Origin: a virus
Lineage: Duplodnaviria > Caudoviricetes
Strand: one strand, 5' to 3'
DNA length: 64,000 nt
Virus record (IMG/VR): IMGVR_UViG_3300027333_000001
A program made the position numbers and the translations under genes. The notes beneath the pieces are model-generated. The model was given only the letters and a program-made list of their open reading frames with translations. It was not told the origin of the DNA and did no database searches. This document shows, piece after piece, positions 6,226 to 53,089 of the stretch. Position 1 is the first letter of the stretch, and the number at the start of each line of letters is the position of its first letter.

Positions 6226-7905
6226 ATGACTAAGTATAGACAAGCTGAATATGAAAATTGGGATGATTATAATTTTGTTTTAAAAAGAATACAAAATGGT
6301 AATGGTAGCGAAATTGCTAAAGCAAGCAGGGATTTAAAATCCAATCCTACATTGAGAGAAATTGCTATTGAGAATGGTGCTTTAATATCAGATACTTATA
6401 TGCCTACTAGTAGATACATAAGAATTTCTGATCCAAATCTTGCTATTAAAGGTTTGAAAAATGGTGGCAGTGATCAACTTGGATATTTAGATAGTAGTCT
6501 TACTAATAATAAAGAAGTAGTTTTAGTAGCAGTAAAATTAGATCCAAATAATCTTATGTTTGCAAGTGATGAACTTAAAGATGACTATGATGTTGTTAGC
6601 CTTGCTGTTAAGATAGATGCTAACACTATTCAATTTGCTAGTGATCGTTTAAAAAATGATCTCACTATCGGAAACTACATCCTTGAAAAAAATCCACAAG
6701 TATTCGTTTCATTAATGAATGACTTAAAGACAAATATTGATTTTGCCATTCAAAGACTTTCACAAAACCTACAAGACCTTAGATTTTTCCCAAACCTAGT
6801 AAATCACATTCAAGTTCAGAAACTTCTTAAAAATAAAAAACTAATTTTGCAATCTGCTGGCATCACACCTGATGCCAAATCAGTTTATCATATTTTCAAT
6901 ATGGTAAATGAAAATCATTTATCTTTCCTTGATCACATAGCAAATGATTTAAAAAACGATGAAAGTTTTATGCTTAAACTTTTAGAAGTAACACCAAAAG
7001 CATATACCATCCTTCCTGATTCTTTAAAAAATGATCCTGTGTTTATAAATAAAGCAATGGATGTGTCTTTGATTGACACCTATTTGAACTTTGATGAAGA
7101 TAAAAAGAAAGAACTTGCAGGAAAAATAACAACTTTAAGTTTGAGTACTGCACCTGCTTTAGATTTTATATTCTATGGTAGAATTACAACACCGGGTCTT
7201 ATCCTTTTTAAAAAACATTTGAACTTCACAATTAAAACCATCAAAGGTTCGCCTTTAAAGAACTTCAAAAAAGTCTTTTCAGCAGGTAAAGTTATAGTTG
7301 GTCAAAAAATAGACCTTCTAGCATCTAATATTTTACCATCTGAAATTGCTAGTGAATTACAAACATTTAAAGGTATACTTGCTGGCTTTTTTGATCCACG
7401 ATTTGTAAATAATGTTTACATCATCTTAAATGGTGAAACATATAAAAAATCCGATGCCATTAATCTTATTCATGAACTTGCACATAAATTTCAATATCAC
7501 CATATAAAGAATGGTATGGAAAACAAAAGACTTAAAGATTTATTTGACCTAGCTAAAAATCCAATTGGTGATGAATATTGCGAACTGCCACAAATAGGTG
7601 ATCCTTTATCTAATCTTAGAGATCCTAAACTTTGGGGCATTAATAATAGATTAGCTAATTCCGAATATTATTTAAAGAAGATTGACCAATGGAACTATAT
7701 CTATGAAAATGAACAAAAAAAACAAAAAATCTTACCTAGATCTGAAATCAGAATACTTAGCAGATGTCCATCTCAATATTCTAAAATGGCTCACTATGAA
7801 TGGTTTGCTGAAATGGCTACTCTTGCTACTTTAAACCTTGCCAAGACTTCTGAAAAATTGATTGTTGAAGAATTTATTAAAATTGTTAATGAAGAATCTA
7901 TTTAA
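6226..7905 (+). CDS. DUF4116-like repeat protein with C-terminal zincin metallopeptidase (paralog 5)
   Basis: Multiple NNKEVVLVAVK/FASDELKDD repeats, HELAH, CPSQYSKMAHYEWFAE. Confidence 0.75.
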   Translation: MTKYRQAEYENWDDYNFVLKRIQNGNGSEIAKASRDLKSNPTLREIAIENGALISDTYMPTSRYIRISDPNLAIKGLKNGGSDQLGYLDSSLTNNKEVVLVAVKLDPNNLMFASDELKDDYDVVSLAVKIDANTIQFASDRLKNDLTIGNYILEKNPQVFVSLMNDLKTNIDFAIQRLSQNLQDLRFFPNLVNHIQVQKLLKNKKLILQSAGITPDAKSVYHIFNMVNENHLSFLDHIANDLKNDESFMLKLLEVTPKAYTILPDSLKNDPVFINKAMDVSLIDTYLNFDEDKKKELAGKITTLSLSTAPALDFIFYGRITTPGLILFKKHLNFTIKTIKGSPLKNFKKVFSAGKVIVGQKIDLLASNILPSEIASELQTFKGILAGFFDPRFVNNVYIILNGETYKKSDAINLIHELAHKFQYHHIKNGMENKRLKDLFDLAKNPIGDEYCELPQIGDPLSNLRDPKLWGINNRLANSEYYLKKIDQWNYIYENEQKKQKILPRSEIRILSRCPSQYSKMAHYEWFAEMATLATLNLAKTSEKLIVEEFIKIVNEESI

Positions 7906-8600
7906 CCTTTTTCCATCCTAGCTTTTGCTTCTTTCATCCATTCCTCTGCATCTATCATTTTACCAAAATTCGCAAATATACTTTCTGTCATTTCAGGTCT
8001 TACTTTCGCTTCATCACAGGCTCGCCTAAATGTTTCAGCTAAAAACCCAAACAAAATCTTAAATGCTTTTGAATCCATATCTATCGTTTGGTTTGATAAC
8101 ATTTCTTTCTTTTTAATCCAAGCATCACCTACTGCCTTTAAAGCATTTACTCTACGAATAGATAACTGACTTGTATTCTCACCTTTTCTTTCTGCCTCTG
8201 ATCTCTCAAATTTTAATGATGCTGATTCTTCTGCCAAACCTTCAATCACTGAATTTAATACATCACCACTCTCAATATTTGTTATTACATTGCCTAATAT
8301 CTTATCCTGCATTAAAGTATTCATCTTATTTAATTGCTGATTTGCTACATTAAGCTGTGTAGATGACATTGCTATCTGTGCTTGTTGAATTGTAGGCACA
8401 GGTGTACTTGGTGTATTTGTTGGACTAGATGCAGGTTTAGTTTTACGACCCGGTTCGGTATTCATCGTAATTGGTAAACCTGTTGTTGGATGCAACATCA
8501 CTTGATCTGTTGGTTTCAATTCATCAGGTTTCCTCCATACAATCTTTCCTAAATCATCTATTACTTTTACTCTTGCTACATTGGGATCAATCACTGTCAT
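7902..8600 (-). CDS. Hypothetical protein, last gene of a probable structural operon
   Basis: 232-aa ORF, P/T-rich linker, helical C-terminus; co-oriented with 8647..13078. Confidence 0.6.
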   Translation of the reverse strand: MTVIDPNVARVKVIDDLGKIVWRKPDELKPTDQVMLHPTTGLPITMNTEPGRKTKPASSPTNTPSTPVPTIQQAQIAMSSTQLNVANQQLNKMNTLMQDKILGNVITNIESGDVLNSVIEGLAEESASLKFERSEAERKGENTSQLSIRRVNALKAVGDAWIKKKEMLSNQTIDMDSKAFKILFGFLAETFRRACDEAKVRPEMTESIFANFGKMIDAEEWMKEAKARMEKG

Positions 8601-8646
8601 TTATTCATATCCTTTTTTAGATTAGATTTTTATATTAGTATTATAT

Positions 8647-9633
8647 CTAAAAAGGTGCAATAAGGTCTAATATTGTTTGCTTATTCTTTTCTAATGATCC
8701 AACCACTCGCATTGCATCTGCTTGTGGTGCATCTAAACTTGTTATTGTTAAGTTATCTACTGCCACTTCTGTTTTCACATAGACACCACCTACTAAATTA
8801 TAAGTAATTGTGTTCTGTGTTAATGGATTATATACCATCTCTACTGTATTTCCTGATGGTGCTATAAATCTTACTTTTTGATCTGCTGTACGAATATCTG
8901 TAAATACATAGATAGGAATAAACTTAATGCTTTTAATAAAATTACTAAAGTCATTTGCCACAGGTGATTCCTTTAATTCACTCATTGGCAAAATTGACTT
9001 TTCTCTCACCACTTGCTTTCTTCCTAACTTATGATCATCTGATGGATCATATAGCAAATTGTTTTCCATATCATAAATTAAGAAAGGTGGAACACCATTA
9101 AACAAATCATAGCTATATTGCAAAAACTGAACAATTAAATTATCAAACAAAGACACTGACTGCACAATCACTTGTGTATCATTATCGGGATCTATACTCG
9201 CAATCATATTAAAATCTTTGTCATTAATAAGATTACATAAGTCTTGTGCAATTTCAGCTAATGTCATCGCATCACCATCTTCACCACCTGTTCTTGCAAA
9301 TGAATCACCTACTTTCATTGTAGGCTGTAATTCCATATCTGCTACATTATCACTGTAGATCTGAAATTCATCTAATCTTCTTAATGATGCAGGTGCTAAA
9401 GCATTATTCCCATATTCATCACTATTTACTCTAATCTTTAATGCAGGTCTTGAATCATTGTAATTACCTAATTGTCCTTGACCATGATTTGTTACAATTA
9501 ATTGTGTTTCAAAGCCATATCGGATTGGTGCAGGTACTACACTTGTAATAGAATAATCTGCACTAGGTTTATGTGCGACTAACATCTTAAATGGTTCAAA
9601 CAAACTTGTCTTTTTATACATCTGTGGTAGCAT
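8647..9633 (-). CDS. Hypothetical, possible virion structural protein
   Basis: 328-aa beta-rich ORF in the same minus-strand cluster; no motif recognised. Confidence 0.5.
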   Translation of the reverse strand: MLPQMYKKTSLFEPFKMLVAHKPSADYSITSVVPAPIRYGFETQLIVTNHGQGQLGNYNDSRPALKIRVNSDEYGNNALAPASLRRLDEFQIYSDNVADMELQPTMKVGDSFARTGGEDGDAMTLAEIAQDLCNLINDKDFNMIASIDPDNDTQVIVQSVSLFDNLIVQFLQYSYDLFNGVPPFLIYDMENNLLYDPSDDHKLGRKQVVREKSILPMSELKESPVANDFSNFIKSIKFIPIYVFTDIRTADQKVRFIAPSGNTVEMVYNPLTQNTITYNLVGGVYVKTEVAVDNLTITSLDAPQADAMRVVGSLEKNKQTILDLIAPF

Positions 9634-9644
9634 TTTTTTTCTCC

Positions 9645-52297: not shown

Positions 52298-52378
52298 GTT
52301 AATATATCCATTGCTCTTAATAATCCTTTTATATTTTACAAGAGTTATAAATGTAAACACACAAAAGGATTTTTTAAA

Positions 52379-52651
52379 ATGTTTCGTAGATTACAAAACA
52401 ATATTAGAAAAGCTAGTCCAATGGATGCTTATGCACAGGTTTCTGATATTGCACAAGAAATTCAAGAATTAGTTGAGAATGGTTCTTCTCTTATTGAAAG
52501 AGAAGAGAAAGCTATTAGAAACGAAATGATTGAAACACCAGCTATTCGTTCTTTAAAGAATCAAATTGATTCTGATTTATATGACATTTATCAATTGGCT
52601 AAGGCTTTAGAAAAAAAAGCTATCCTCATCCAAAAATCTATGAAAGGTTAA
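52379..52651 (+). CDS. Hypothetical helical protein
   Basis: 90-aa ORF with AAAGGA RBS, upstream of the endolysin. Confidence 0.55.
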   Translation: MFRRLQNNIRKASPMDAYAQVSDIAQEIQELVENGSSLIEREEKAIRNEMIETPAIRSLKNQIDSDLYDIYQLAKALEKKAILIQKSMKG

Positions 52652-52657
52652 CCCATC

Positions 52658-53089
52658 ATGGCAAAGTTATTGACTGCTAATGAAAAAACACCCGGGTCTC
52701 CAAAGGGCGTGACTAGCTTCAAATATTCGGAAATGGAATACTATGACCGTATTCCTAAAGAACTCATTCCAAATGCTGATAAGGTTTTACAAAATCTACA
52801 AGTATTAAGAGATGTAGTAGGTAAACCAATTTTTATCATGAGTGGGTTTAGGTCTCCAGAGAGGAATGAAGCCGTTGGTGGGGCGAAGAAATCGCAACAT
52901 TGCGAGGGAAATGCCTGCGATATAAAAGTAAAAGACACAGCACCTGAAGAAGTGGCAAAGTTGATTGAGAAATTAATTGCTGAAGGTAAAATGTGTCAAG
53001 GTGGACTTGGGACTTACTCTAGATCGACACCATCTGAGGGCTGGGTACATTATGATTGCAGAAATGTAAAAGCTAGATGGAATGGATGA
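52658..53089 (+). CDS. Peptidase M15A-family endolysin
   Basis: SGFRS..RN..VGGAKKSQH..GNACDI and WVHYDCR Zn-ligand motifs. Confidence 0.88.
   Translation: MAKLLTANEKTPGSPKGVTSFKYSEMEYYDRIPKELIPNADKVLQNLQVLRDVVGKPIFIMSGFRSPERNEAVGGAKKSQHCEGNACDIKVKDTAPEEVAKLIEKLIAEGKMCQGGLGTYSRSTPSEGWVHYDCRNVKARWNG

Follow-up and report, generated by a model that had tools for sequence, protein, structure and literature searches.

We found that a 64,000-bp stretch of DNA from an uncultured freshwater jumbo phage (IMG/VR record IMGVR_UViG_3300027333_000001; here called the window) contains no copy of the palindrome CCWGG, with both CCAGG and CCTGG counted at 0. The loss is complete, extends over all reading frames and both strands, and leaves the encoded protein unchanged, which strongly supports selection at the DNA level. 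The missing palindrome is one item of a very broad purge of restriction sites and not a CCWGG-specific trait. In our view, it is probably the outcome of a selection-driven purge that forms part of a broad anti-restriction site avoidance, the targets of which turn over rapidly from lineage to lineage.

Absence of CCWGG in the window

Dinucleotide-preserving shuffles of the window gave an expectation of 33.1 ± 5.5 CCWGG sites, synonymous-codon shuffles within genes gave 18.1 ± 2.8, and codon shuffles that also keep the base after the codon gave 14.2 ± 2.5 (minimum of 8 in 200 shuffles), against none observed. Divided by reading frame, 10.5, 3.2, and 4.2 sites were expected and 0, 0, and 0 were found. 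An initial annotation of this DNA, made from the letters alone, had noticed neither CCAGG nor CCTGG on reading, and the exhaustive count of zero, where 14 to 33 sites are expected, confirms that impression.

The same annotation had pointed to Pro-Gly dipeptides, all of which it found to be written with CCC or CCG. Independent gene calls recover exactly 12 of them in the window, in exactly the open reading frames (ORFs) that had been named, six as CCC-GGN and six as CCG-GGN, and the first and last (7192 and 52691) agree with the span of 7190 to 52700 that it gave. The remaining prolines are, as it had also remarked, mostly CCT or CCA: the window uses CCA 267, CCT 342, CCC 20, and CCG 13 times, so that CCA and CCT make up 95% of Pro codons. 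Even when only Pro codons in front of a G-initial codon are counted, the choice made at Pro-Gly has a hypergeometric P value of 6e-16, and before G-initial codons other than Gly the Pro codon is CCT rather than CCA.

Pro-Gly confronts the phage with a forced choice, since CCN-GGN can only be CCWGG or CCSGG and CCSGG contains CCGG, so that one of the two palindromes must be accepted. All 12 Pro-Gly dipeptides of the window use a CCS codon and make up 12 of its 13 CCGG sites, and CCSGG is in excess (16 observed versus 2 to 4 expected) because these sites are replacements of CCWGG. The proposal that CCGG and CCSGG are tolerated consequently holds at Pro-Gly but not away from it, where CCGG is disfavored.

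No near match to the window was found among deposited phages, the closest of which by protein is an uncultured phage of 485 kb with about 32% identity. IMG/VR, however, holds a large family of contigs of 220 to 375 kb with RecA identities of 47 to 96% to the window. Its nearest member, the sister phage G001 (316,221 bp; CheckV 100% complete), has a nucleotide identity of about 84% to the window and aligns with it over 33.7 kb at 67 to 86% nucleotide identity (mostly 76 to 86%). At all seven aligned CCWGG sites of G001, the window has CCSGG at the same conserved Pro-Gly, with only the central W changed to S. In the sister phage, 83 of 84 Pro-Gly dipeptides use a CCW codon and account for 83 of its 92 genic CCWGG sites, with a mild depletion outside Pro-Gly (9 versus 15 to 25 expected), while CCGG is nearly eliminated, with 5 sites in all and 2 in frame 2, where 28 to 65 are expected. 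CCGG is depleted in most other relatives as well. Both palindromes are thus disfavored, and the order of preference is reversed between the two sister phages.

On the plus strand, the Pro-Gly sites of the window are CCG-GGT at 7192..7197 in the gene for a DUF4116 protein (ORF 6226-7905); CCC-GGT at 20835..20840 in nrdA (20454-22187); CCC-GGG at 26704..26709 in the gene for a RecD-like helicase (25822-27912; CCTGG in G001); CCC-GGC at 30170..30175 in ORF 30059-30769 (CCTGG in G001); CCC-GGA at 34339..34344, encoding Pro61-Gly62 of RecA (34159-35385; CCAGG in G001); CCG-GGC at 41341..41346 in the gene for a PD-(D/E)XK nuclease (40756-41757; CCAGG in G001); CCG-GGC at 42807..42812 in ORF 42084-43271 (CCTGG in G001); CCG-GGT at 47411..47416 in ORF 47246-47752; and CCC-GGG at 52691..52696 in ORF 52658-53089, which had been annotated as an endolysin and whose homologue in contig L068 carries Peptidase_M15 domains. 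On the minus strand, they are CCG-GGT at 8448..8453 in ORF 7902-8600 (CCTGG in G001), CCC-GGT at 11943..11948 in a 935-amino-acid ORF (9645-12452; CCAGG in G001), and CCG-GGT at 44341..44346 in the gene for a LamG-like protein (43936-44766).

The RecA dipeptide is invariant in 41 relatives and is mostly encoded with CCW (CCA or CCT); Pro61 is CCG in a separately CCWGG-depleted branch (contigs L007 to L012) and CCC in the window. Pro-Gly itself is under-represented about equally in the window (12 versus 31 expected) and in G001 (84 versus 180), and a protein-level loss of the dipeptide specific to the window was therefore rejected.

Breadth and lineage turnover of the purge

We carried out composition-aware screens of all 4- to 6-mers and of 363 catalogued recognition sites, of which 264 (4 to 6 bp) had at least 8 expected occurrences and could be tested. 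Among these 264, 34 fall below 20% of expectation and 71 below 50%. Under the strict null, the observed and expected numbers in the window are 1/34 for ACTGG, 4/37 for GTCTC, 2/25 for AGCTC, 5/28 for ACCCT, 1/25 for AAGCTT, 0/16 for ATGCAT, 0/19 for RCATGY, 2/13 for GAATTC, and 1/9 for GCWGC. ACGT occurs 0 times where 13 (strict null) or 52 (synonymous null) copies are expected, and GGCC once where 6 or 25 are expected, respectively. Over the whole window (1..64000), CCWGG is found 0 times, CCAGT 1 time, CCAGA 10 times, CCAGC 49 times, and GCAGC 1 time, and GATC, with 294 sites, is not avoided. All purged words for which the catalogue has an entry are recognized by type II or IIS enzymes.

The depletion is not specific to the palindrome, as CCAGT (1/62) and CCAGA (10/83) are lost too, while CCAGC is not. 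Thus, of the earlier proposal of selection against a CCWGG-directed system, the DNA-level selection against CCWGG stands, but the frame centered on Dcm and EcoRII is too narrow for dozens of words, for the CCAGD pattern (CCAG followed by any base but C), and for the trade with CCGG. An unbiased search of all 4- and 5-mers for words that the window avoids and G001 does not returned exactly CCAGA (10/83 in the window versus 518/397 in G001), CCAGT (1/62 versus 414/321), and CCAGG (0/33 versus 91/154), with CCAGC depleted in neither genome. A looser screen with the word densities of G001 as expectation again gave CCAGD as the dominant signal, plus minor differences in CpG words. In the aligned blocks, ACTGG falls from 33 copies in G001 to 1 in the window and CCAGA from 47 to 3. 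Only 3 of 87 CCAGD sites are conserved between the two, versus 38 to 66% of the control words GATC, TGCA, CATG, AGCT, and GTAC. The replacement of both CCAGT and ACTGG, by which both strands are cleared, argues for a cause at the level of DNA. The sister phage has losses of its own, namely, CTGTC, CACAG, GATATC (0 in 316 kb), GCAAGC, and CCGG.

The extent of the purge was judged from two near-identical contigs, L067 (ENA ERZ19547693 scaffold_2, 350,655 bp), a near-twin with 98% nucleotide identity to the window over 9.6 kb, and L082, a distant region of the twin genome. The 350-kb near-twin is contained in the lake assemblies ERZ19547693 and ERZ19525958 of ENA. Contigs L002, L067, L068, and L082 share the purge of the window, with 0 CCWGG in 86 kb in total, and L002 has the same S base as the window at two Pro-Gly sites. 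The purge is therefore a property of the whole genome and of the clade.

Elsewhere in the family, CCWGG has been depleted independently in L043 (0/37), in L030 (0/30), and in the L007 to L012 branch. The CCAGD words separate from one another in these and other branches: L043 lacks CCWGG only, L030 lacks CCWGG and ACTGG and keeps CCAGA, L004 to L006 have lost ACTGG and kept CCWGG, and in L007 to L012 all CCAGN words are depleted. In a REBASE-derived table (Biopython), CCWGG is the recognition site of EcoRII and MvaI, ACTGG that of BsrI, and CCAGA that of BspNCI, and the table lists no enzyme that reads CCAGD. The joint loss of the three words in the window clade suggests a single cause. It does not follow that CCAGD must be one motif, however, as the three words were lost independently in other branches, and we therefore treat CCWGG as a genuine and recurrently targeted site, with either one agent or three being possible in the window clade.

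Other members of the family show further patterns. Contig L043 (IMGVR_UViG_3300033170_000009; RecA identity, 26%) has 0 GATC sites versus 104 expected, lacks CCWGG, and keeps most other sites, a fingerprint quite unlike that of the window. The marine-like relatives L014 to L027 (G+C content, 41 to 44%) have 0 to 7 copies of CCTGA/TCAGG versus 32 to 50 expected, an avoided word private to their branch.

Several features of the window's own sequence were also observed in the course of this analysis. Ala-Ala is about 10-fold under-represented in both phages (5 versus 51.6 expected in the window and 31 versus 291 in G001). GCW-GCN would give rise to GCWGC, and the shortage fits an avoidance of this word that extends to the proteins, GCAGC being found at 1/43 in the window and 1/187 in G001. 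GGAG/CTCC is strongly depleted in the window (40 versus 121 to 205 expected), AGGAGG is absent, and the ribosome-binding sites upstream of most window genes (e.g., 1323-1352, 2779-2808, and 18743-18772) read AAAGGAT or AAGGA and not GGAGG. The avoidance may here act on the Shine-Dalgarno core, or the host may have an unusual anti-Shine-Dalgarno preference. In addition, CG-containing 4-mers are nearly absent from the window (ACGT, 0; ACGC, 1; GCGC, 1; CGCG, 0), while family relatives of higher G+C content have CpG odds ratios of 0.6 to 1.2.

Methyltransferases and the possible agents of avoidance

The sister phage carries five genes for C5-cytosine methyltransferases (MTases), three of them at syntenic positions that are empty in the window, and no C5-MTase was found in any frame of the 64-kb window. 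Two of the three lie in tandem (L051:3928-6125 of G001) in a 2.4-kb insertion that corresponds to the gap between nrdA and nrdB (22188..22374), and the third is at a position that matches about 13.1 kb of the window. The tandem enzymes are 63% identical to each other. Asymmetric sites are classically protected by two strand-specific MTases, for which a tandem pair is the expected arrangement. Taken together, these findings suggest that the sister may protect CCAGD words through MTases of putative matching specificity, whereas the window clade purges them. Methylation in place of purging was rejected as a family-wide rule, as eight other contigs lack a C5-MTase regardless of whether CCWGG is depleted.

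The window has instead two adenine MTases, as the initial annotation had stated and as domain matches corroborate. The first is a type I-style enzyme on the minus strand (37042..39077), composed of HsdM (37617-39077; N6_Mtase, 338 bits, and HsdM_N; PADLOC MTase_I match) and an adjacent half-size HsdS (37042-37620; 192 amino acids; Methylase_S, 107 bits; PADLOC Specificity_I match) with a single target recognition domain. A search confined to the window found no HsdR. Together with two small ORFs, these genes make up a clean insertion of 2.9 kb (36820-39737) relative to G001 (19838-19864), with the Rad50-like N-terminal half on one side and the Mre11-like gene on the other. The second is P0001 (57463..60303, minus strand), a 946-amino-acid homologue of type IIG/IIL restriction-methyltransferases by profile matches. 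Its MTase domain matches Pfam N6_Mtase, Eco57I, and MmeI_Mtase and contains GNPPY, as expected of a gamma-class N6-adenine MTase. The protein aligns with LlaBIII and PDB entry 7lo5, matches the PADLOC REase_MTase_IIG profile from residue 15 (389 bits), and has a C-terminal target recognition domain (Type_ISP_C, 106 bits, residues 657 to 911). In the nuclease motif, bacterial homologues, which are only about 30% identical, read GAPD...IE(A/T)K and the phage copies SSPE...IETK, so that E53 and K55 are kept and Glu takes the place of the first Asp. Neither P0001 nor its paralogue in the twin genome, P0017, has a homologue in G001, and scans of viral contigs found no relatives of the IIG proteins P0001 and P0004. 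A hidden orthodox restriction-modification cassette at 23373-25314, a segment that does not align to G001, was considered and rejected, the PADLOC "methyl transferase" match there scoring 21 bits with no support from Pfam, PHROGs, PDB, or Atlas.

The phage has cleared the site by silent changes on both strands and in all reading frames, and the explanation that we favor for this is avoidance of restriction. The agents may be type II or IIS enzymes of the host, such as EcoRII/MvaI-like (CCWGG), BsrI-like (ACTGG), and BspNCI-like (CCAGA) enzymes, or possibly one reader of CCAGD. The phage DNA would be exposed at CCAGD words in the window lineage, which lacks the C5-MTases of its sister, and the differences between the sister phages might mirror different restriction-modification repertoires of their host strains.

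Several points weigh against this explanation. The cognate restriction enzyme is a postulated one, and our searches pointed to no host: probing with HsdM returned homologues of at most 38% identity that are scattered over Chitinophagales, Methylobacter, Bacillota, and others, and none of the bacterial loci that bear these homologues shares the avoidance fingerprint of the window. The window represents about 64 kb of a genome of about 350 kb, and a C5-MTase may be encoded elsewhere in it. Moreover, the presence of C5-MTases does not track tolerance of CCWGG, G006 to G013 being without them both where the site is avoided and where it is not. The joint loss of CCAGD words in one lineage could equally reflect one agent other than a classical type II enzyme, and the purge co-occurs with phage-encoded type IIG-like genes. 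It is conceivable, although we consider it rather unlikely, that CCAGD is one uncatalogued specificity, either of the host or of the phage's own IIG-like enzymes, and that the sisters flip between blanket C5 methylation and a state in which the MTases are lost and the words are purged wholesale. The five MTases of G001 would then be the number that covers one palindrome and both strands of two asymmetric words, and Pro-Gly would be a pinch point that reveals whether CCWGG or CCGG is more dangerous in a given host population.

The missing words might also have arisen with no selection at all, as a by-product of AT-rich composition, CpG depletion, or codon or mutational bias. With a G+C content of 30.8% and a CpG odds ratio of 0.29, GC-rich words are rare in the window anyway, and CCWGG arises almost only at Pro-Gly, as the genic sites of G001 illustrate. 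However, nulls that keep dinucleotides, codon usage, protein, and next-base context still expect 14 to 33 sites, the replacements run against the codon bias and toward the CpG-containing CCGG, and G001, at a like composition (31.1% and 0.34), keeps 91 CCWGG, 414 CCAGT, and 518 CCAGA; we regard this explanation as effectively refuted. Selection could alternatively be methyl-directed, in that 5-methylcytosine set at CCWGG and related words by a Dcm-like host enzyme or by phage C5-MTases might be attacked by type IV or MspJI-like nucleases, which would select for the loss both of phage C5-MTases and of methylatable words. The lack of C5-MTases at the three syntenic positions and the presence of adenine MTases in the window are in line with this idea, as are catalogued methyl-dependent enzymes with CC-containing targets, e.g., LpnPI at C(5mC)DG. 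Yet there is no avoidance of CCTG words, although CCDG includes them (CCTGA, 90/83; CCTGC, 109/38; CCTGT, 162/62), and L002 is purged even though it has a C5-MTase. The idea also requires two host factors, compared with one for avoidance of ordinary restriction, and the host system is conjectural, so that we judge it quite improbable.

A nuclease of the phage's own would be a different kind of agent: P0001 and its paralogue P0017 may cut CCAGD-type words in the DNA of the host or of competitors, with the genome cleared against self-restriction. P0001 is homologous to the type IIG profile from residue 15 and retains the E-x-K half of the nuclease motif, and the distribution of homologues follows the purge, as contigs with close homologues are purged of CCAGD (7/62 in L067 and 8/61 in L068), a contig with a 65% homologue is intermediate (8/25 in L069), and G001, which has a homologue of neither paralogue, is unpurged (1023/872). 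The IIG gene also lies beside Cas3 and Cas7-like genes in L067, in what resembles an offense/defense island. This association, however, is fully confounded with relatedness, and GAPD reads SSPE in the phage copies, which alters the first acidic residue of the PD motif and leaves nuclease activity only putative. Such enzymes carry their own MTase and are normally self-protecting, and their recognition sites usually have 6 to 7 bp and are not degenerate 5-mers. The separate loss of CCWGG, ACTGG, and CCAGA in other branches is in keeping with separate agents, the unannotated ORFs of the window yielded no orthodox restriction nuclease, and type IIG sites are generally not avoided by phages (PMC6286503). 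We therefore hold an origin in the phage's own nuclease to be unlikely, and restriction by host type II or IIS enzymes remains the explanation that we prefer.

Known systems and genomic context

Avoidance of restriction sites is a textbook mechanism and not new, and the window illustrates it with unusual clarity and breadth. Classical cases include Staphylococcus phage K, which lacks GATC, and phages of Bacillus and of cyanobacteria that have lost the sites of host enzymes. In lytic double-stranded DNA phages, avoidance is concentrated on orthodox type II sites and not on type I or IIG sites (Rusinov et al. 2018, PMC6286503), and elimination is complete or nearly so in roughly a tenth of cases (PMC6286503). 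The window resembles these phages in that short type II words are gone from both strands by synonymous changes and at many sites at once, and in that the phage is large and does not look temperate. It differs from them in breadth, with 34 of 264 sites below 20% of expectation and many asymmetric IIS-type 5-mers included, and in that two sister genomes have different private sets, CCAGD in the window and the five words named above in G001.

Compared with particular enzymes, the case is similarly mixed. EcoRII, MvaI, BstNI, and Dcm act on the same palindrome, C5 methylation of its inner C is protective, and the CCWGG-tolerant G001 has its five C5-MTases; the loss in the window lineage, on the other hand, extends to CCAGT and CCAGA, which they do not cut. 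BsrI (ACTGG) and BspNCI (CCAGA) match the other two lineage-specific words exactly, a likeness of word alone, and the data are explained equally well by these enzymes and by a single uncatalogued CCAGD specificity. P0001 shares its MTase and C-terminal specificity domains with MmeI/DrdV-type IIL enzymes and with the type ISP enzymes LlaGI and LlaBIII (PDB 7lo5, 4xqk, and 5ffj), and it corresponds to type IIG enzymes in its length and, by homology, in its N-terminal domain. It is unlike type ISP enzymes in having no helicase motor and unlike both IIL and ISP enzymes in the changed first acidic residue of its nuclease motif and in being encoded by a phage.

The value of this case lies in the same codons having been silently rewritten, site by site, between two sister jumbo phages, from which a word screen isolates the specificities that changed, and in Pro-Gly, where the genetic code itself imposes a choice between two common restriction palindromes. 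Fingerprints of avoided words change more quickly in evolution than the set of genes does. Combined with long-read methylomes from the lakes of origin, they could tie uncultured jumbo phages to strains of their hosts and could predict restriction specificities that are not yet catalogued, e.g., CCAGD, CTGTC, and AGCTC. The family relies on exposed, unmodified DNA and on MTase cassettes rather than on physical shielding, which is relevant to how jumbo phages evade host defenses.

The window encodes a set of phage replication and recombination proteins, including NrdA, NrdB, the RecD-like helicase, RecA, and Pol III delta-like proteins, in addition to an Mre11-like phosphoesterase, the PD-(D/E)XK nuclease, and DUF4116 repeat proteins. 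Its segments 7899-17510 and 18701-23377 match G001 at 304876-315691 and 188-7123, so that both ends of the G001 contig are spanned, consistent with circular permutation or terminal redundancy of the genome. An origin-like region near 17.7 to 18.5 kb of the window falls at the G001 contig junction.

In L067 (15902-22841), the Cas3 gene (HD and helicase domains) and the Cas7-like gene (Cas_CT1975) are located just past an 863-amino-acid gene that adjoins the IIG enzyme, and the counterpart position in the window is occupied by a homing-endonuclease-like ORF (53255-54403). This locus looks like a variable offense/defense island with a phage-encoded CRISPR-Cas system. Finally, a 34-kb contig labeled as part of an uncultured Acetobacter metagenome-assembled genome (L076; CAYQDC010000013.1) has 0/20 ACGT, 0/19 GCAGC, 0/30 GGCC, 0/19 CCGG, and 0/25 GATC and behaves like a phage or mobile element purged of sites, one that was probably misbinned into that genome.

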